This document shows positions 11,080-22,952 of a stretch of DNA of 64,000 bases, one piece after another. Position 1 is the stretch's first letter; each line of letters starts with the position of its first letter. Under the pieces are notes generated by a model, which was not told the origin of the DNA, did not search any database, and was given only the letters and a program-made list of their open reading frames with translations. The stretch is taken from contig JBGATK010000002.1 in NCBI GenBank assembly GCA_044229265.1, positions 15,092 to 79,091 of the forward strand, given 5' to 3'. This DNA comes from Minisyncoccia bacterium. GTDB taxonomy: Bacteria; Patescibacteriota; Minisyncoccia; Phycocordibacterales; UBA9973. A program made the position numbers and the translations under genes.

Positions 11080-11152
11080 TTTTTTAGTATAACAAATTTT
11101 TCAAGAATTTTCCTTGCTTTTTATTTTTAACCAATTGTATAATATAGGCACA

Positions 11153-14100
11153 ATGCTATATCGGGTAAAATTCTTACCTTATATTCTCGTGGCATTCTTT
11201 GCCAGCTTGTTCTTCTTTGTTTCATTTTTACATCATGCTTTTGCATTTACTTATGTAAATACTGATATAAATACAGACACTACTTGGACACTATCCGGTA
11301 GTCCGTATATTATCGAGAAAACTATTATTGTTTTAGATGATGCGACGCTCTCTATCGAGCCCGGAGTCGCTATTAAATTTAAGGTGAAAGAGCCACTCTC
11401 TAATATGTATGTTTTTGGTAAAATTATTGCACAAGGCACAAATGATATGCCGATATATTTTACTTCTCTTTATGATGATATTGTTGCGCCGGAAACAGAT
11501 GATGAAGAATTTTGTGATGAAGAGTATGATGCCAAAGGCAATGTAATTTCTAAAACTAATTGTATATATTTGGATTTTTATGATCCACAGCCGAGGGACT
11601 GGGGAGGTTTATTTTTTATTTCTTCTTTAGGCTCTACTTTAGAAAACACTCATTTCTCGTATGGAAAGAATTTTTTTACTGTTCAAGAATCTGATATAAA
11701 TATTTTTAGAAATATAGAAATATCTCACGGCGAGCAAGGCATGGTTCTTTTTAATCATAGTTCTGTGAATTTTGAAAATGCAAAGTTAAAAGATATTTCC
11801 AGCAATGGCATCACTCTTTTCAATAATAGTTTTTTAAATTTTGATAAATTTATATTTGAAGAAGTGAATCGAAATCCGGCAATAGTTTTTAATGAGTCAT
11901 CTTTTTCAGGCCGTGGCCTCGATATGGGTCCGGGTATTACCAGTTCACGGCGCGATTATATCGTAGCTTTCAATGGCTCAAACTTAGTTTTAAAAGATTC
12001 TATTTTTAGAGATTGCGATCTAGGTTCATGTATAAATATTTTTGATGGCAGTAGTTATGAAGGCGAGGCTTCACTGCTAGATATAGATAAAACTATTTTC
12101 GAAGGAGGCAATGAAACAGCTATTACTATTTTTGGGTCTTTACCAATTAAAGCGAAAATAAACAATTCTGTTTTTGGTGATTTTCCTTTATATTCTATAG
12201 ATAATTTTTCTACAGATTTTGTTGTAGATGCTCGCAAGAATTTTTGGGGTAATGCTTCCGGTCCTTTTCATGCAACTGCAAACCCCACAGGTTTAGGAGA
12301 AAAAATTTCTGGTTTAGTGGATTTCGATCCGTGGTGTAAAACTCCTGACTGCACTTTCCGCAACCCTGTAATTTTTATCCCAGGAGTAATGGGTAATGAT
12401 ATTCTGCGCCCCGCCGAGGGTGATGAAGACGCTCCTCAAAAACTTTGGCTAAATATTACAAAAATGATTACAGATATTGGTGATGATTTTATGGATGCTT
12501 TAGGGCTGAATGAAGATTTTACACCGCTAAAAGATAATTTGATTATTGGAGATTTGATTAAAGAACCTTTAATCGGCCAGCATTTTTACGATAAAATTAT
12601 AGATGAACTTGTATTGCAAGGCTATGTCGAAGGTGAAGACATTTTCATTTTTCCTTACGATTGGCGCTATGGTGTGAGTGATGAAAATATAGCTTTATTA
12701 AAACAAAAAATTACAGATGTAAAAAACATTAAAGGTAGTGACAAGGTAGATGTAGTGGCTCATTCTACCGGTGGCTTGCTCGTAAAAAAATATGTAATAG
12801 ATAATTCTGCAAATCATAGTATAGATAAAGCTGTATTTGTAGGTGTACCATCTGCTGGCGCACCGCAAGCCGTAAAGATGCTTGTACAAGGTGATAATAT
12901 GAGAATACCATTTTTAGATTCGGATGAAATGAAAAAGATCGCAAAGAATTTACCTGTAGTTTATGACTTGTCTCCGAGCCTCGAATATTACAATAAAAAG
13001 GGAAGTTATATACAAATAAAGAATGTCATACCTTTTAAAAAGTCTACAATTAAAGATTTAAATTTTACAGAAGCAAATAATTATTTAATAGAAAAAGGTA
13101 AAAATAAAATAGCTTTGGAAGATGCTCATATTTTACATACTAAAGAATTCGATAATTTTGATATGCGCACAAGTGGAGTAGATGTATACAATATTGCTGG
13201 TTGCAAAGCTAGCACTTTTGGTACTTTAGTAGAAATTCATAATAAAAATATTTCAAAAAAAGATTTAGTATCGTATCGGGAACCGATATACATAAAAGGC
13301 GATGGCACAGTGCCACTCGAAAGTGCGACATTTTTACCAGTCGATGAGGCAAAAAGATTTTTTTCTCTAAATGCAGATCATGCTAAAATGCCCTCGCAAG
13401 ATGGCACGCGTCAGCTCATTACAAATATTATCTCTGGCAGTTCACTCCCTACTTCAAATAAAATCACTCAAGACATTGCGAAATGTAAATTAAATGGCAG
13501 GTCTATAGCAGTGTATAGCCCTGTAAATATCGAAGTCATAGATCAATACGGCAATAGGCTAGGTATTTTAGAAGATGGTATAAATACAGAAAATAATATT
13601 CCAAATGCGTATTTTGATATTGTAGATGAACATAAGTTTTTGTATTTACCTACAGATGAGGGTCAAATATATACGATAAATATCAAAGGCACAGGTGGGG
13701 GCACTTTTACTATTACTGATACAAAAATAGTTGATGATATAAAAACAGACATGCAAATTTTTAAGAATTTAGTAGTATCGCCAGCTCTCGTGGGAAGTAT
13801 TGTTTTAGGTGATGAAAGTATTTTGAATTTAGATAATGATGGCGATGGTGATGTAGATCAGAATTTAAAACCAGATATATTTTTAGATGAGGTAGAAGTA
13901 TTAGATTTTGAACCATATTTAGAAGAAAAATTAGAGGAAGAAATACCAAGAGTTGCTTCGTTTGGCGGTGGGGGCGGTGGAGGTTTCCCATTTGTATTTG
14001 TGGAACAAATAAAATCTTTGGCTTTGCTTCCACAAGTCCTCGGAGCTGAGACTAGTATAGTTGATACAGAAAAAGAAGCCTTTGAAAATAAAGAAAATTC

Positions 14101-14320
14101 TAAGCCTTTAATTATTCAAAATTCAGAAAAACCTAATATTGTATTAGATAATTCTTTTACTAATAATCCGCAAATTAAAGAAGAGAATATAGAAAATGCA
14201 AAAAATGCTAATATAATAATAGAAGAAAAAATAGAAAATAAATTTAGATATGAATACATAATTTATATCTTAATCATTATTGGTATTATCTTATTAGTAA
14301 AAAAAATTATAAAGTTGTAG
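11153..14320 (+). CDS. very large cell-surface protein: signal peptide, parallel beta-helix repeats, alpha/beta-hydrolase lipase domain (GxSxG = HSTGG, LCAT/PGAP1-like), Gly-rich segment, C-terminal TM anchor
   Basis: signal-like MLYRVKFLPYILVAFFASLFFFVSF; FIPGVMGN + VAHSTGGL lipase motifs; FGGGGGGGF then C-terminal hydrophobic YIIYILIIIGIILLV; TATAAT 9 nt upstream of ATG 11153 (ORF track start 11114 probably alternative). Confidence 0.6.
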   Translation: MLYRVKFLPYILVAFFASLFFFVSFLHHAFAFTYVNTDINTDTTWTLSGSPYIIEKTIIVLDDATLSIEPGVAIKFKVKEPLSNMYVFGKIIAQGTNDMPIYFTSLYDDIVAPETDDEEFCDEEYDAKGNVISKTNCIYLDFYDPQPRDWGGLFFISSLGSTLENTHFSYGKNFFTVQESDINIFRNIEISHGEQGMVLFNHSSVNFENAKLKDISSNGITLFNNSFLNFDKFIFEEVNRNPAIVFNESSFSGRGLDMGPGITSSRRDYIVAFNGSNLVLKDSIFRDCDLGSCINIFDGSSYEGEASLLDIDKTIFEGGNETAITIFGSLPIKAKINNSVFGDFPLYSIDNFSTDFVVDARKNFWGNASGPFHATANPTGLGEKISGLVDFDPWCKTPDCTFRNPVIFIPGVMGNDILRPAEGDEDAPQKLWLNITKMITDIGDDFMDALGLNEDFTPLKDNLIIGDLIKEPLIGQHFYDKIIDELVLQGYVEGEDIFIFPYDWRYGVSDENIALLKQKITDVKNIKGSDKVDVVAHSTGGLLVKKYVIDNSANHSIDKAVFVGVPSAGAPQAVKMLVQGDNMRIPFLDSDEMKKIAKNLPVVYDLSPSLEYYNKKGSYIQIKNVIPFKKSTIKDLNFTEANNYLIEKGKNKIALEDAHILHTKEFDNFDMRTSGVDVYNIAGCKASTFGTLVEIHNKNISKKDLVSYREPIYIKGDGTVPLESATFLPVDEAKRFFSLNADHAKMPSQDGTRQLITNIISGSSLPTSNKITQDIAKCKLNGRSIAVYSPVNIEVIDQYGNRLGILEDGINTENNIPNAYFDIVDEHKFLYLPTDEGQIYTINIKGTGGGTFTITDTKIVDDIKTDMQIFKNLVVSPALVGSIVLGDESILNLDNDGDGDVDQNLKPDIFLDEVEVLDFEPYLEEKLEEEIPRVASFGGGGGGGFPFVFVEQIKSLALLPQVLGAETSIVDTEKEAFENKENSKPLIIQNSEKPNIVLDNSFTNNPQIKEENIENAKNANIIIEEKIENKFRYEYIIYILIIIGIILLVKKIIKL

Positions 14321-15856: not shown

Positions 15857-16249
15857 ATGGAAAAAGATTTTGATAAGTGGAATGAAATCAAAAAGAAGAT
15901 TCATCAAGAGGAGAATATCCCAGATCGTTTTCCAAAAGAAGGCGAAGTTTGGATGTCTAACCTTGGTAAGAATATTGGATTTGAACAAAATGGAGGTGGA
16001 GAAAATTTCTCTAGGCCTATTTTAATAATTAAGAAATTCAATAATCATATGTTTTGGGTAGTACCTTTGTCCACAAAACAGAAAAATTTTGATTTTTATT
16101 ATAATTTTATAGATATAGATAATAAAAAAGTTTCAGCTATTCTTGCCCAATTAAAATTAATGAGTGTCAAAAGATTTAATAGAAAAATGTATGAAATGCC
16201 TCAAAATCAATTTGTTGATGTTTTGAATAAAATTAGAGGATTTATCTAA
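15857..16249 (+). CDS. MazF/PemK-family endoribonuclease toxin-like protein (solitary, no adjacent antitoxin seen)
   Basis: GEVWMSNLGKNIGFEQNGGGENFSRPILII...FWVVPLSTKQ matches MazF/PemK G-x-I/V-x-L-x-G-x-EQ-x-RP-x-LI-x-VxPxT pattern. Confidence 0.6.
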   Translation: MEKDFDKWNEIKKKIHQEENIPDRFPKEGEVWMSNLGKNIGFEQNGGGENFSRPILIIKKFNNHMFWVVPLSTKQKNFDFYYNFIDIDNKKVSAILAQLKLMSVKRFNRKMYEMPQNQFVDVLNKIRGFI

Positions 16250-16254
16250 AAATC

Positions 16255-16278
16255 GAAAGCCCCCTTTCGGGGGCTTTC
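16255..16278 (+). terminator. strong GC hairpin (gaaagccccc-tttc-gggggctttc) after mazF-like gene
   Basis: 10-bp perfect stem; weak T-tract. Confidence 0.5.
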
Positions 16279-16403: not shown

Positions 16404-16664
16404 ATGAAAAATAAAAATGACAAATTACATAGCTTGCCGGCAGATTTTAAGGAAGCGATAGATTCAAAAAGGGCAGTAGCTCATATGTGGCAGGATATCA
16501 CTCCGCTTGCTCGCAATGAATGGATCTGCTGGGTAGAATCTGCCAAAAAATTAGAAACTAGGCAAAGGCGAATAAAAATAGCCCTTTCGAAAATGAGCTC
16601 CGGCGAAAAGCGCCCCTGCTGCTGGGCCGGCTGTTCGCATCGAGGGAATAAAACAGTGGTATAA
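16404..16664 (+). CDS. YdeI/OmpD-associated (bacteriocin-protection) family small protein
   Basis: W-rich core and C-terminal CCWAGCSHR motif typical of YdeI-like family; 3' 122 bp duplicated downstream. Confidence 0.5.
   Translation: MKNKNDKLHSLPADFKEAIDSKRAVAHMWQDITPLARNEWICWVESAKKLETRQRRIKIALSKMSSGEKRPCCWAGCSHRGNKTVV
16522..16643. repeat. direct repeat copy 1 (3' end of ydeI-like gene), 122 bp
   Basis: 121/122 identical to 17312-17433. Confidence 0.9.
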
Positions 16665-16671
16665 TTTATAT

Positions 16672-17154
16672 ATGGAAAAGACAAGTATTTATATTGATGG
16701 AAATAATCTATATAGATCTGCAAAAGAGCTCGGTTTTAATATTGATTACAAAAAATTCATAGGATGGCTTCGTCAAAAATATAATCCAGAATTCGTTTAC
16801 TTGTTTATTGGTCTCGTGCCAGAGAGAACAAAGTTTTATGAACATCTACAAAAATGTGGTTATGTTTTAATTTTTAAACAAACTGTATCTGTGGGAGAAA
16901 AAATAAAAGGTAATTGTGATGCAGAACTGGTATTAAAAGCTGTTTCGGATTATTATACTAACTCATTTGATAAATTAATTTTGATTACTGGTGACGGGGA
17001 TTTTGGTTGCTTGGTGGAATTTATGAAAGATAAAAATTCGATGCATACTATTATTGCACCTGATGAAAAGAAATGTTCTTTTTTACTTAGAAATAAAAAT
17101 ACTGAAATTGTTTTTCTTAACAATCAATATCATAAATTCTCTAAGGAGCTATAA
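16672..17154 (+). CDS. NYN-domain (LabA/DUF88-like, PIN-fold) putative RNase
   Basis: IYIDGNNLY start and ILITGDGDFGCLVE motif typical of NYN domains; gene is bracketed by the 122-bp direct repeats. Confidence 0.65.
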   Translation: MEKTSIYIDGNNLYRSAKELGFNIDYKKFIGWLRQKYNPEFVYLFIGLVPERTKFYEHLQKCGYVLIFKQTVSVGEKIKGNCDAELVLKAVSDYYTNSFDKLILITGDGDFGCLVEFMKDKNSMHTIIAPDEKKCSFLLRNKNTEIVFLNNQYHKFSKEL

Positions 17155-17199: not shown

Positions 17200-17311
17200 C
17201 ATAGTGATACATGTATACTATCAAATTTTTATAAAAAAGTCAAAGTTTTCCACATTTTATAATCTTGTCAAAATTCCTCATAGATTAAGTCCATCTCGGG
17301 AATGGACATAT

Positions 17312-17433
17312 GGATCTGCTGGGTAGAATCTGCCAAAAAATTAGAAACTAGGCAAAGGCGAATAAAAATAGCCCTTTCGAAAATGAGCTCCGGCGAAAAG
17401 CGCCCCTGCTGCTGGGCCGGGTGTTCGCATCGA
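17312..17433. repeat. direct repeat copy 2 (duplicated ydeI-like 3' end), 122 bp
   Basis: single mismatch versus 16522-16643. Confidence 0.9.
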
Positions 17434-17475
17434 TAAAATGAGCCATATTTAGGTCTGTATTCTGGCGATATTTTG

Positions 17476-17484
17476 TGTTAGAAT
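17476..17484 (+). promoter_or_regulatory. extended -10 (TGtTAGAAT) 6 nt upstream of ATG 17491: leaderless promoter for the mazG-like operon
   Basis: TGn + TAGAAT, 6-nt spacer to ATG. Confidence 0.5.
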
Positions 17485-17490
17485 TTGGGC

Positions 17491-17838
17491 ATGTCTGATT
17501 TACAAAAACTAACAAAGCAAATAAACAAATTCCGAAAAGAACGAAATTGGGAACAATTCCATAATCCTAAAGACATGGCTCTTTCGTTGGTTTTAGAGGC
17601 GACAGAGTTGATGGAGCATTTTCAGTGGAAAAACGGTGAAGATTTAACAAATTATATAAAGAAAAATAAAAAAGAAATTTCTTATGAACTTGCAGATACT
17701 CTTTATTGGGTTTTAACTATTGCTCATGATTTTAATATTGATATTGTAAAATCTTTTACTGAGAAGATGAAAATTAATGCAAAAAAATATCCTGTTTCAA
17801 AATTCAAAGGACGTGCTGGCAAATATAATGAAGTATAA
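17491..17838 (+). CDS. MazG-like nucleoside triphosphate pyrophosphohydrolase
   Basis: EATELMEHF...LADTLYWVL motifs of the all-alpha MazG/NTP-PPase fold; ORF track start 17485 is a TTG, ATG at 17491 preferred. Confidence 0.7.
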   Translation: MSDLQKLTKQINKFRKERNWEQFHNPKDMALSLVLEATELMEHFQWKNGEDLTNYIKKNKKEISYELADTLYWVLTIAHDFNIDIVKSFTEKMKINAKKYPVSKFKGRAGKYNEV

Positions 17839-17841
17839 TTT

Positions 17842-19866
17842 ATGTCCGATATAAAAACTTTCCCTTTTAATAAAGAAGATTTTGATCAAATAAAAAATTT
17901 TAAATTTGGTAAAAATTGGCCTGTTGTTTATGTTCTTGAAGATAAGAAAGAAATTTATATCGGTCAAACGGTAAATGCTCATGCAAGAAGCAAGCAACAT
18001 TATGAAAACCCAGAAAGAAGTAAATTAAAAAGTATTCATATCATAACCGACGAAGAATTTAATGTTTCAGCAGCACTTGATATAGAGTCATGGTTAATAC
18101 AGTACATATCTGCTGATGGATTATTTATATTGCAAAATGGTAATGGTGGGCTAAAAAATCATAACTATTACGATAGAGTAAAATATAAAACAAAATTCGA
18201 ACTTGCTTGGGATAATTTAATGCAAATGGGTATTGTTAAAAACACTCTAGAAGACCTTAAAAATAGCGACTTATTCAAATATTCTCCTTACAAATCTTTG
18301 ACAGAAGACCAATTTACAATAGCTAGGCAGATATTCAAAGACATAAAGAAGAATGAAATAAATACTTTTATAGTAAATGGTAAACCGGGTACTGGTAAAA
18401 CAATTCTTGCTACTTATCTTTTTAAATACCTAAAAGAACAAGATGAAACAAAAAATATGAATATTGGCCTTGTTGTGCCAATGGCATCACTTCGAAAAAC
18501 AATTGCTAGGGTATTTTCAAAAATAAAAGGCTTAAAATCAAACATGGTTATTGGGCCAAATGATGTTGTTAAAGATAAATATGACTTACTTATCGTTGAT
18601 GAATCTCATAGATTACAAAGGCGTAAAGGTATTATGGGTTATGGTGCATATGACAATGTAAACCGAGGGCTTGGCCTGGGTAATGAAGGAACACAGCTTG
18701 ATTGGATTATGAAGTCATCTAAACATCAAATATTTTTCTATGATGAAAATCAAAGTGTAAAACCGGCCGATATTAGACCCGAGGATTTTAAAAAGCTTAA
18801 TTCTAAAAAGTATGAATTAGTTTCCCAAATGCGAGTTGAGGCTGGTGAAGAATATATTAAATTCATCGAAGATTTTTTTGATTTAAAAACTCCACAAAAT
18901 ACTAATTTTCCAAATTATGATTTGAAAATATTTGATAATGCTGAAAAAATGGTAAATGAAATTAAGGAAAAAGATAAAAAGCATAAACTTGCACGTGTAG
19001 TTGCTGGCTATGCTTGGCCTTGGCACACAGCACGTGGTACTCGTGATTATGATATAGAGATAGGTGATTTAAAACTTATCTGGAATTCTACAGCGCAAGA
19101 CTGGGTAAACTCACCAAACGCAATAAACGAAGTTGGTTGTATTCATACTGTACAAGGTTATGATTTAAATTATGTTGGTGTAATTATTGGCCCAGAATTT
19201 TCATATGACACAGAAAATAAAAAATTCAAAGTCGATAAGGAAAAATATTTTGATACAAATGGCCGTAATGGTATTACTGATCCAAACGAACTAGAAAGAT
19301 ATGTAATCAATATTTATAAAACATTACTAACTCGAGGCATTAAAGGTACTTATGTTTATGTTGTTGATGAAAATTTGAGAAATTATTTAAATCAAGTTGT
19401 AAATAAAACCCCGATTTCAATTCAAAAAGAAATTACTCCAAAAATTATAAGATCTCCTTATGCAGGAGAAATGATAGGAATTCCTCTAGTTGGTTCTGCT
19501 CCCTGTGGTGAACCACTTTTAGGAGAAAGCAATATAGAAGAGATAATCATGGTAGAGAAAAGCAAAATAAAACCTGGAGCAAAATATTTTATATTGCGTG
19601 CGAGTGGAGATTCTATGAACAAAGCCGGAATAAATGACGGAGACTTAGTGCTTTGTCGTTCATCAGAAAAAGGAGAAACTGGAGACAGAGTTGTCGCATT
19701 ATTAGGAGGTGAAAATGTGACAATAAAATATTATGATAAAAAAGACGGGCGGAGAATATTATTACCAAAAAGCACAAATAGTTCACACCAACCAATAATT
19801 CCAGAAGAAGGTGATAGTGTTCAGGGCATTGTGCAAGAGGTTATTGAAAGATTAGAGGAAAAATAA
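17842..19866 (+). CDS. three-domain fusion: N-terminal GIY-YIG nuclease, central DUF2075-type SF1-like P-loop ATPase/helicase, C-terminal LexA/UmuD-type S24 peptidase domain
   Basis: VVYVL...EIYIGQT...R...E (GIY-YIG); Walker A GKPGTGKT, Walker B LLIVDESHRL, motif GCIHTVQGYDLNYVGVIIG (SF1 motif VI-like); C-term IPLVGSAPCGEPLL...RASGDSM...GINDGDLV...VTIKYY (S24 Ser-Lys dyad and Cys-Gly cleavage site as in UmuD). Confidence 0.8.
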   Translation: MSDIKTFPFNKEDFDQIKNFKFGKNWPVVYVLEDKKEIYIGQTVNAHARSKQHYENPERSKLKSIHIITDEEFNVSAALDIESWLIQYISADGLFILQNGNGGLKNHNYYDRVKYKTKFELAWDNLMQMGIVKNTLEDLKNSDLFKYSPYKSLTEDQFTIARQIFKDIKKNEINTFIVNGKPGTGKTILATYLFKYLKEQDETKNMNIGLVVPMASLRKTIARVFSKIKGLKSNMVIGPNDVVKDKYDLLIVDESHRLQRRKGIMGYGAYDNVNRGLGLGNEGTQLDWIMKSSKHQIFFYDENQSVKPADIRPEDFKKLNSKKYELVSQMRVEAGEEYIKFIEDFFDLKTPQNTNFPNYDLKIFDNAEKMVNEIKEKDKKHKLARVVAGYAWPWHTARGTRDYDIEIGDLKLIWNSTAQDWVNSPNAINEVGCIHTVQGYDLNYVGVIIGPEFSYDTENKKFKVDKEKYFDTNGRNGITDPNELERYVINIYKTLLTRGIKGTYVYVVDENLRNYLNQVVNKTPISIQKEITPKIIRSPYAGEMIGIPLVGSAPCGEPLLGESNIEEIIMVEKSKIKPGAKYFILRASGDSMNKAGINDGDLVLCRSSEKGETGDRVVALLGGENVTIKYYDKKDGRRILLPKSTNSSHQPIIPEEGDSVQGIVQEVIERLEEK

Positions 19867-19870
19867 ATTT

Positions 19871-20686
19871 ATGAACGAATTACAAGCAATAAAAGAAATA
19901 GTAAAAGCAAATTCAACTGCAGTTTATCAAGATTCAGCACAACCATCTGTTCGTGTTTTAGGAAAGTCTTTAGCACAATGTGTTTCTTTGTTTGCAACAC
20001 CAATTGGTAGGATGGCTGAAATTTTTGAAAAGAATCTCTCACGCTATATTGATAAGTTGGAGGGTTTGTCGTCTGATCAAATCATATTACCAGAAACTAG
20101 AGTGTTAGTTCCAATTCTTGAACGGCTTCGTTATACAGATGACGAAGTAGTCGCTGATTATTATGCTCAAATATTAGCAACTGCTTCAACAACTGAAAAC
20201 GCAAAAAAAGTATCTGTTGCTTTTATTGAGATTCTTAATCGTTTATGTGCAGATGAAATTAGAGTACTTGAATTTATAAATTCACCAAATAATACAATGC
20301 TCCTAGAGAATGAAGCTAATGAAAAATATAATCTTTCACTTTTCGGTGTTTTACCGGTAATAAATATACATTTAAACTTAAAAGAAGGGGGTTATATTGT
20401 AGCCATAAAGAACTTAAATTATCTGACAGAAAAAATTACGCTTAATAATCCCGATAATTTAAATATGTATTTTGACAACATGATTGCATTAGGTCTTCTT
20501 TTGAAACCTGCAATGATAAGGGCTCATGATAATAATATTTATACATATATAAAGAAAAACCTTTTAATAAAAGAAGTTGAATCGAAACTTGCTGAAGGAC
20601 AAACAATTGATTATTCTGAAGCCAGGATAGAAACTACAGAGCTCGGTAAACAATTGTTGAATATTGCATCAAATAAAATAAAGTAG
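19871..20686 (+). CDS. Abi-alpha (DUF4393)-like hypothetical protein, co-operonic with the nuclease-helicase
   Basis: 4-bp gap to upstream gene; segment ILPETRVLVPILERLRYTDDEVVADYYAQILATAS...FIEILNRLCADEIRVLEFI resembles Abi-alpha core pattern; family call tentative. Confidence 0.4.
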   Translation: MNELQAIKEIVKANSTAVYQDSAQPSVRVLGKSLAQCVSLFATPIGRMAEIFEKNLSRYIDKLEGLSSDQIILPETRVLVPILERLRYTDDEVVADYYAQILATASTTENAKKVSVAFIEILNRLCADEIRVLEFINSPNNTMLLENEANEKYNLSLFGVLPVINIHLNLKEGGYIVAIKNLNYLTEKITLNNPDNLNMYFDNMIALGLLLKPAMIRAHDNNIYTYIKKNLLIKEVESKLAEGQTIDYSEARIETTELGKQLLNIASNKIK

Positions 20687-22544: not shown

Positions 22545-22952
22545 ATGAGCAACACAAACAATTGGTATAGCACTCTCATAAAGCCTTCGTTTGCACCACC
22601 TTCATGGCTTTTTGGTCCAGTCTGGACTGTGCTTTATGCTATTATCGCTATTTCTTTCGGTACTGTGTTTTATAAAGCATTTACTAAACAAATTCCATGG
22701 ATGGTGGCACTGCCTTTTGTGCTAAATTTAATTTTTAATTTTTCTTTTACTTATTTTCAATTTGGTTTAAAGAATAATCTTCTGGCATCTATTGATATTT
22801 TGCTCGTCGTCGGCACTCTAGTTTGGGCACTCTATGCGGTTTGGCACAATGTGCCCGAGCTACGTTGGGTAGCTTATGTAAATATCCCATATCTTTTGTG
22901 GGGAAGTTTCGCCACTGTCCTCCAATTAACCATAACTTACTTGAATAAATAA
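22545..22952 (+). CDS. tspO: TspO/MBR (tryptophan-rich sensory protein) family, short form
   Basis: WYSTLIKPSFAPPSWLFGPVWTVLYAIIA N-terminal signature. Confidence 0.7.
   Translation: MSNTNNWYSTLIKPSFAPPSWLFGPVWTVLYAIIAISFGTVFYKAFTKQIPWMVALPFVLNLIFNFSFTYFQFGLKNNLLASIDILLVVGTLVWALYAVWHNVPELRWVAYVNIPYLLWGSFATVLQLTITYLNK

Follow-up and report, generated by a model that had tools for sequence, protein, structure and literature searches.

A conserved gene pair encoding a MazG-like pyrophosphohydrolase and a Schlafen-type nuclease-helicase with a LexA-type S24 domain: a candidate defence module in Patescibacteriota and other bacteria

We analysed a window of 64,000 nucleotides (nt) from a Minisyncoccia bacterium, that is, the whole stretch at positions 15,092-79,091 of contig JBGATK010000002.1, read on the forward strand; all coordinates below are relative to this window. 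A reading made from the sequence alone had proposed that three tightly packed open reading frames (ORFs), all on the + strand, form one novel defence system, and we recovered the same ORFs at the same coordinates. They encode a MazG-like all-alpha NTP pyrophosphohydrolase of 115 amino acids (aa) resembling DCTPP1/RS21-C6 (17491..17838), a 674-aa fusion of a GIY-YIG nuclease, a Schlafen group III (SLFN-g3, DUF2075) helicase and a Peptidase_S24 domain (17842..19866), and a 271-aa Abi_alpha (DUF4393) protein (19871..20686). Our comparison of related loci revealed that the conserved unit is a pair, the MazG-like gene and the nuclease-helicase gene, the latter usually with an S24 domain. By its domain sequences, the pair appears to be a relative of Nhi, Nhi-like, AbiO and PDC-S41 proteins that gained two accessories. 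We see an even chance that it constitutes an uncatalogued defence module related to the Nhi and AbiO nuclease-helicases, with a DCTPP1-like partner and an S24 switch triggered by RecA on single-stranded DNA (RecA*).

Results

The MazG-like and nuclease-helicase genes form a conserved pair

Scanning a single genome from each GTDB species, we recovered 56 loci with relatives of the fusion protein. A MazG-like gene lies directly upstream of the helicase gene in 54 of them, at a median gap of 2 nt (3 nt in the window) and, in Bacteroidota, with a 4-nt overlap by ORF coordinates. The two genes also adjoin each other in ten further loci, where the MazG-like gene is upstream and co-oriented except in L073, in which it is downstream and convergent. 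The invariant presence of this partner suggests that any anti-phage protection may require both genes.

The pair is found in the candidate phyla radiation (CPR)/Patescibacteria (Paceibacteria, Nomurabacteria and others), Bacteroidota (isolates of Indibacter, Marivirga and Mariniflexile), Erysipelotrichaceae (Bacillota) and one gammaproteobacterium. It is also present on megaplasmids of the Bacillus cereus group (B. thuringiensis and Bacillus sp.), where genes for an HNH endonuclease and a zeta toxin lie nearby; RefSeq labels the two genes of the pair "nucleotide pyrophosphohydrolase" and then "DUF2075 domain-containing protein." A faecal "Bacteriophage sp." contig carries the pair, as do five IMG/VR contigs identified in a profile scan, and a scan of IMG/VR for close relatives gave no match. 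Neither the MazG-like partnership nor the fusion of S24 to a helicase is described in the searchable literature, although absence there is not proof.

Plasmid p1 of Bacillus sp. PGP15 has a tandem arrangement (L064:1036-5662), consisting of a MazG-like gene, a gene for a 686-aa GIY-YIG protein with a PifA/QatA-like NTPase, a MazG-like gene fragment and then a GIY-YIG-DUF2075 gene. Because of this arrangement, MazG-like proteins may partner GIY-YIG NTPases more generally.

The Abi_alpha gene appears to be a passenger of the pair

The identification of the third gene as Abi-alpha was borne out by Pfam (PF14337, E value of 1.1e-28, 101 bits against a cut-off of 29, residues 53-265). The protein is a full-length member of the PADLOC single-gene candidate PDC-S47 (2e-39, residues 16-266 of 271). 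However, its membership in a three-gene system was not upheld. An Abi_alpha gene occurs in none of the 56 helicase loci, as judged by tblastn and by phmmer on all ORFs, and it is absent even beside the closest helicase relatives (93-94% identity), where the MazG-like gene is present and other genes follow downstream. Conversely, none of the six metagenome loci holding close Abi_alpha relatives (51-85% identity) contains the MazG-like and helicase genes. The only other copy of the triad that we found, L065, comes from another assembly and encodes identical MazG-like, helicase and Abi_alpha proteins. A lack of co-localisation in orthologous genomes had been named beforehand as the finding that would speak against the triad; because this is what the genomes revealed, we regard it as refuted as a conserved system.

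The boundaries of DNA homology point the same way. Other loci share DNA homology with the window from 17469-17550 onward where their MazG-like gene is of the closer type, and from points as far in as approximately 17870 where it is of the more divergent type. In S24-bearing loci it ends at 19842-19875, which is the 3' end and stop codon of the helicase gene. Because homology stops there, the Abi_alpha gene lies outside the homology block.

Two Abi_alpha relatives, L057:6001-6816 (85% identity) and L060:606-1427 (68%), are located between hsdM and hsdS of type I restriction-modification operons, whereas the host operon in the window is the MazG-helicase pair. Both overlap hsdS by 26 nt, and the one in L060 has the same 4-nt gap as that between the fusion and Abi_alpha ORFs here. 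Type I restriction-modification operons are known to carry defence cargo, such as PrrC. The operon in L057 also has an inserted UvrD-like helicase gene, and in L058 the Abi_alpha relative adjoins a trypsin-like peptidase.

The position 3' of the helicase gene is a variable cargo hot spot, occupied here by Abi_alpha. Elsewhere it holds an AbiP2 reverse transcriptase (9e-174), a true PDC-S41 DUF2075 protein (3.6e-290 over the full length, in L030), a CAP12/Pycsar-type TIR protein (PDC-S35), a GmrSD-N/DUF7834 protein, DUF3800 (twice), NYN, PIN_12, HNH (three times), HTH-SocA/Panacea (four times) and Fic proteins, as well as ordinary genes (RNase H, MFS, LemA). Examples of this cargo are L016:10021-11583, L030:6295-8268, L007:10227-11354 and L038:2070-3563. 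From these comparisons, Abi_alpha appears to be a separate, stand-alone defence cassette inserted in the slot. We also considered that the pair might use several effectors interchangeably, Abi_alpha being one of them. We think this less likely than independent cargo, because the other occupants are complete, known stand-alone systems (AbiP2, PDC-S41 and GmrSD), toxin-antitoxin (TA) antitoxin-type genes or ordinary genes and because Abi_alpha relatives live in unrelated operons.

In this genome, the Abi_alpha gene is nonetheless probably co-transcribed with the pair, given the 3- to 4-nt packing of the three genes, the presence of a Shine-Dalgarno-like GAGGAA within the 3' end of the helicase gene, 12 nt 5' of the Abi_alpha ATG, and the absence of a terminator-like site between the helicase and Abi_alpha genes in a terminator scan, which is uninformative in this AT-rich region. 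The lesson is that tight operon packing alone is no evidence for a system.

The fusion protein combines nuclease, helicase and S24 domains

The three-domain composition proposed for the fusion was confirmed, with the S24 and DUF2075 assignments supported by hidden Markov model searches and the GIY-YIG assignment by other means. For the N-terminal domain (aa 1-140, 17842..18261), the match to GIY-YIG (PF01541) falls below the gathering threshold (E value of 0.0083, 16.8 bits against 22.6), and this family is on record for a few close homologues (P0035, P0069 and P0115). A Foldseek search with the whole fusion model was dominated by helicase and S24 matches and gave none for the N terminus; therefore, we modelled and searched this domain separately. 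The AlphaFold model of residues 1-142 has a predicted local distance difference test (pLDDT) score of 90 and the beta-beta-alpha-beta-alpha fold, and the domain contains the GIY...YIG motifs and the catalytic Arg, Glu and Asn. R49 occurs in every one of 54 homologues, Y30, Y39 and G41 each in 48 and N99 in 49; at position 82, 49 homologues have E and the other 5 have D. Thus, the GIY-YIG assignment holds on the predicted structure and the motifs, rather than on the Pfam threshold.

The central part is a superfamily 1 (SF1) helicase core of the Schlafen group III/DUF2075 type (aa 141-522, 18262..19407). PF09848 (SLFN-g3_helicase/DUF2075) matches residues 175-509 with an E value of 1.9e-70 and 238 bits. 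The Walker A motif GKPGTGKT (18379-18402) and Walker B DE (18598-18603) contain G185, K186, D253 and E254, all invariant among the 54 homologues. The top Foldseek matches of the core are the helicase domains of human SLFN11 and SLFN14, RecD2 and Dda. PF04326, the nuclease core of the Schlafen/AlbA_2 type, has no match in the fusion, whose N terminus is GIY-YIG instead. At E <= 1e-30, the family comprises 506 clusters at 50% identity. PADLOC models cover parts of the protein: Nhi matches residues 142-380 (2.5e-18, model positions 173-376 of 470), AbiO matches residues 140-469, in the helicase core only (9.5e-17), PDC-S41 matches only residues 414-507 (1.4e-7), so that the fusion is not a full-length member, and PDC-S14 matches the nuclease domain.

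A flexible linker (aa 523-547, 19408..19482) joins the helicase to the S24 domain. The AlphaFold2 model of the full-length fusion has a pLDDT of 81, dropping below 50 at residues 523-540, which are predicted to be disordered. S24 is absent in 13 of the 54 homologues; alignments to these proteins end at query residues 516-527, where the linker begins.

The C-terminal LexA/UmuD-type domain (aa 548-674, 19483..19866) matches Peptidase_S24 (PF00717) over residues 548-657 with an E value of 9.9e-21 and 74 bits against a cut-off of 23.3. It is 43% identical to Escherichia coli LexA by BLASTP, matches structures of the LexA C-terminal domain at 1e-14 and has Foldseek template modelling scores of 0.80-0.85 against that domain. 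In the BLASTP register, C555-G556 (19504-19509) falls on the LexA cleavage site A84-G85, Ser591 (19612-19614) on S119 and Lys629 (19726-19728) on K156. The catalytic Ser and Lys do not vary among the 41 homologues that carry S24; in 36 of these the putative scissile site is C-G, the UmuD-type cleavage site, and in the other 5 its first residue is A or V. The protein does not qualify as a LexA repressor: TIGR00498, the NCBIfam LexA model, matches the C-terminal part only and, at 80.1 bits, stays below its cut-off of 110.95, and the N terminus is a nuclease-helicase rather than a winged helix-turn-helix DNA-binding domain. By its residues and modelled fold, the domain appears to be a complete LexA-type autoprotease.

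The MazG-like protein resembles dCTP pyrophosphatase 1

The assignment of the first gene to the MazG-type pyrophosphohydrolases was likewise confirmed: PF12643 matches residues 32-114 with an E value of 6.4e-13 and 49.2 bits against a cut-off of 27. In the PDB, dCTP pyrophosphatase 1 (6sqw/2a3q, mammalian DCTPP1/RS21-C6) aligns to the protein at 6e-17, and the two share a W-x-Q-F-H-x-P...FQW pocket motif. At least 80% of 53 MazG-like homologues retain the acidic metal-binding motifs E..E..E and ELAD. From these motifs, we infer that the substrate may be of the dCTP type or a modified deoxynucleoside triphosphate (dNTP). No PADLOC model matched the protein, and neither the PADLOC models nor the searchable literature yielded a defence system that includes a MazG-type enzyme. 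The gene evolves faster than its partner, with nonsynonymous divergence (dN) of 0.30-0.38 versus 0.02-0.13 for the helicase core.

Modules of the pair have been exchanged among loci

The nuclease and the S24 domain both vary among homologues. Six CPR loci within L046-L052 (for example, L048:7212-9536), which we term type B, encode a PD-(D/E)XK-like N terminus ("IIIELKQW"), followed by a helicase core that shares only 30-35% identity with that of the window. The ends of these loci are conserved, with an S24 region 75-80% identical to the window's at the nucleotide level and a MazG-like protein 52-59% identical. The alignments thus suggest that in type B the centre of the gene was swapped between conserved ends. 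Helicase cores 96% identical to that of the window are paired with MazG-like proteins only 43-60% identical, so that the identity of the MazG-like protein does not follow that of the helicase.

Purifying selection on the helicase is very strong (ratio of nonsynonymous to synonymous divergence, omega, of 0.03-0.08; 92-96% aa identity at approximately 83% nt identity). When the fusion gene was compared with those of L001-L004, synonymous divergence (dS) was 0.6-0.7 in the helicase core and 1.1-2.2 in the GIY-YIG and S24 parts; the lower value in the core suggests intragenic recombination or gene conversion. Some helicase copies are disrupted by splitting, multiple frames or truncation (L026:3476-5499, L055:8001-9885 and L056:8001-8633) and may be pseudogenes or errors in the assembly of metagenome-assembled genomes.

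Putative promoter and surroundings of the pair

The sequence-only reading had placed an extended -10 promoter in front of a leaderless operon. The box, TGTTAGAAT, is present on the + strand (17476..17484), 6 nt 5' of the MazG-like ATG at 17491; its role as a promoter is plausible only. The mechanically called ORF begins at a TTG (17485), and homologues begin at the ATG (MSD...). A generic sigma-70 scan was uninformative in this AT-rich region, with 29 promoter-like sites versus 27.9 expected, and the leaderless signature GGTADAAT-N4-10-ATG had two matches genome-wide versus 1.15 expected, which is not significant. Because of the latter result, we judged the promoter by positional conservation 5' of MazG-like homologues. 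Boxes of the GGTAGAAT/GGGATAGT type occur at a matching distance upstream of these genes in CPR loci, and a GG(T/G)A-N-(A/G)(A/G)T -10 box begins 12-20 nt 5' of the start codon in 18 of 39 CPR loci versus 2.4% of random positions. A promoter abutting the MazG-like ATG is therefore plausible, and TGTTAGAAT could give rise to a leaderless or near-leaderless transcript. GC content does not clearly set the pair apart (0.28-0.34, with flanks of 0.33-0.40).

The description of the neighbourhood as an accessory or defence island was supported, and the neighbours listed by the sequence-only reading were confirmed by Pfam: a PemK/MazF-like toxin, an Ogt-type DNA_binding_1 protein, an NYN protein and a DUF2726 protein. 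An OmdA/YdeI-like protein is encoded there as well. The toxin gene (15857-16249) has no recognisable antitoxin gene upstream and is preceded by the 86-aa Ogt-type gene; a strong GC-rich hairpin, GAAAGCCCCCGAAAGGGGGCTTTC, follows on its 3' side (16254-16278). The OmdA/YdeI-like gene (16404-16664) and the NYN gene (16672-17154) come next; a separate GTGGTATAAT box lies 7 nt 5' of the NYN ATG. The duplicated segment noted earlier is a 124-nt direct repeat detected by a repeat finder (16520-16643 and 17310-17433, 99% identity), the copies of which are 666 nt apart. It corresponds to the 3' part of the OmdA/YdeI-like gene, which recurs as a headless fragment just 5' of the putative MazG-like promoter. 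The repeat flanks the NYN gene and resembles a scar left by insertion of an NYN cassette or by recombination.

The syntenic relative L008 passes from MazF to the MazG-like gene in approximately 170 nt, without OmdA or NYN; Ogt, MazF, TM50 and P245 are present both there and in the window. MazF homologues are located near the pair in L008, L010, L015 and L018 (37-81% identity), and L051 has a weak phmmer match. The TspO gene (22545-22952 in the window) lies 0.25-3.3 kb from the pair in approximately 10 CPR loci, with differing genes in between. Farther upstream in the window, a 1068-aa ORF (11114-14320) has an N-terminal transmembrane segment and a lipase-like "HSTGG" motif.

Discussion

How the pair might act

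If the pair is a defence module, the S24 domain would restrain the enzyme in the resting state, either as a dimer or by autoinhibition. RecA-coated single-stranded DNA, arising from phage or plasmid replication or from DNA damage, could then trigger self-cleavage at Cys555-Gly556. Cleavage would free a nuclease-helicase of approximately 555 aa, equivalent to the natural S24-less homologues, which might unwind, nick or degrade the offending DNA, or all replicating DNA. The co-translated MazG-like protein would hydrolyse dCTP-type or modified dNTPs, so that the pool is starved or "sanitised" and DNA is not re-made or hypermodified. In this genome, the Abi_alpha cassette, inserted in the cargo slot, would probably ride on the transcript of the pair. 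In its strongest form, this proposal makes the pair an undescribed and widespread two-gene immune or suicide module, in which a Schlafen-type nuclease-helicase is licensed by RecA*-stimulated S24 self-cleavage and assisted by DCTPP1-like destruction of dCTP or modified dCTP; we hold that form only tentatively and consider it doubtful.

A defence role is favoured by the conservation of the pair across distant taxa, the PADLOC matches to Nhi, AbiO and PDC-S14, the exchange of nuclease and S24 domains, the defence and TA cargo in the 3' slot, the complete set of S24 residues behind a linker predicted to be disordered and the conserved DCTPP1-like motifs of the MazG-like protein. Several points weigh against it. 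Purifying selection as strong as that on the helicase is usually a mark of housekeeping or repair genes, less so of defence genes, which evolve fast. The matches of the fusion to Nhi, AbiO and PDC-S41 are confined to part of the helicase core, and the searchable literature describes no system of this composition. An Ogt gene is present within 8 kb of the pair in the window and four other loci, and genes of the DNA_alkylation and glyoxalase/3-dmu-9_3-mt types, with a faint DinB-family match, are among the neighbours. The S24 domain could serve simply as a dimerisation domain; that cleavage would activate rather than inactivate the enzyme, and would depend on RecA, is something we purely infer.

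The strong selection and the repair-type neighbours, together with the partial synteny in CPR (TspO, and the genes shared with L008), favour a DNA-damage response or house-cleaning module, the main alternative though an unlikely one. Here, S24 would couple a GIY-YIG/SF1 repair enzyme to RecA*, the DCTPP1-like protein would remove damaged or modified dNTPs and the adjoining defence genes would mark an integration hot spot next to a conserved chromosomal pair. The components would suit such a role: GIY-YIG is the fold of UvrC 3' incision, the S24 domains of LexA and UmuD belong to the SOS system and DCTPP1 has a house-cleaning function. Nevertheless, a repair function fits poorly with the swapping of the nuclease, the optional S24 domain, the shuffling of MazG-like genes relative to helicases and the disrupted helicase copies. 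It is also at odds with the location of the pair on viral contigs and on megaplasmids, there beside genes for a zeta toxin and an HNH endonuclease, and with the anti-phage activity of the nearest relatives that have been characterised. Finally, at E <= 1e-8, 135 PADLOC models matched 150 ORFs within 2.5 kb of the pair, whereas an equal number of ORFs 5 kb or more away matched 33, a crude comparison without formal statistics that counts matched models rather than proteins.

An addiction pair of the TA type would be improbable. In such a pair, the nuclease-helicase would be a toxin that the MazG-like protein neutralises, by binding it or by removing its NTP fuel or activator, and S24 cleavage or loss of the MazG-like protein would free the toxin. 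The small upstream gene, with its 2-nt median gap or 4-nt overlap, has the layout expected, and it evolves faster than the helicase and independently of helicase identity. In addition, MazF-type toxin genes are nearby in the window and four other loci, with the weak match in L051. Yet the conservation of the acidic and DCTPP1-type pocket motifs argues that enzymatic activity is selected, beyond mere binding, and the free pairing of MazG-like variants with very different helicases disfavours a tightly co-evolving neutralisation. A single three-component system of MazG-like, fusion and Abi_alpha proteins has very little probability. The narrow gaps, the lack of a terminator-like site and the GAGGAA are what such a system would show, as is the probable co-transcription; against these stand the separate occurrence of Abi_alpha and the pair in both sets of loci, including the 93-94% relatives, the single-gene PDC-S47 match, the homology block that ends at the helicase stop codon, the equally tight 4-nt packing of an Abi_alpha relative in a type I restriction-modification operon and the unrelated genes that occupy the same slot elsewhere.

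If the defence role is correct, the pair would add a nucleotide-pool enzyme and a built-in RecA* damage sensor to the Nhi/AbiO class of nuclease-helicases and would offer a tractable bacterial model for the coupling of Schlafen-type helicases to replication stress. It would also represent a defence anchor with a cargo hot spot in the CPR/Patescibacteria, whose immune repertoire is poorly known. In the strongest form of the proposal, no earlier immune effector would have had an SOS sensor of its own. If the pair instead functions in repair, it would reveal post-translational, LexA-independent SOS wiring in reduced genomes.

Comparison with known systems

The S24 domain has the Ser-Lys dyad, the (Ala/Cys)-Gly site and the fold common to LexA, UmuD and phage CI. 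In those proteins, a DNA-binding helix-turn-helix or winged helix-turn-helix domain or the short UmuD peptide lies N-terminal to it, whereas the fusion has a 520-aa nuclease-helicase in this position. Enzymes acting on the dNTP pool have precedent in immunity, and the role proposed for the MazG-like protein would resemble that of the nucleotide-depletion defences dCTP deaminase and dGTPase. dCTP deaminase is counted among defence systems in a survey that also uses PF09848 as an "Abi" Pfam, as defence-island surveys do (PMC10121019), and fusions of GIY-YIG and DUF2075 have been noted in defence islands (PMC6765204).

The closest functional precedents are Nhi and Nhi-like, single-protein nuclease-DUF2075 enzymes with experimentally demonstrated anti-phage activity (bioRxiv 10.1101/776245 and 10.1101/2022.05.11.491447). 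Like the fusion, Nhi of Staphylococcus epidermidis (SERP2475) and Nhi-like (Millman et al. 2022) join an N-terminal nuclease to a DUF2075/PF09848 SF1 helicase in one chain. The nuclease of Nhi is of the PD-(D/E)XK type, as in the type B alleles, and that of the window is GIY-YIG; the window further differs in its obligatorily linked MazG-like gene and in the S24 domain at the C terminus of the fusion, neither of which is described for Nhi. AbiO (Lactococcus) and PDC-S41 (PD-(D/E)XK plus DUF2075) share the helicase core with the fusion, but they have different N-terminal domains and lack both the MazG-like partner and S24.

Schlafen 11 and the other group III Schlafens belong to the same PF09848 helicase family, at approximately 10-12% identity. 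They have an AlbA_2/SLFN RNase N-terminal domain, which the fusion lacks; its link to damage would be the fused S24 domain. SLFN11 is recruited to RPA-coated single-stranded DNA at stressed forks and kills damaged cells, a logic conceptually parallel to that of a helicase gated by a sensor of RecA* on single-stranded DNA. If the strongest form of our proposal were true, the pair would be a bacterial counterpart of SLFN11, killing cells with troubled replication.

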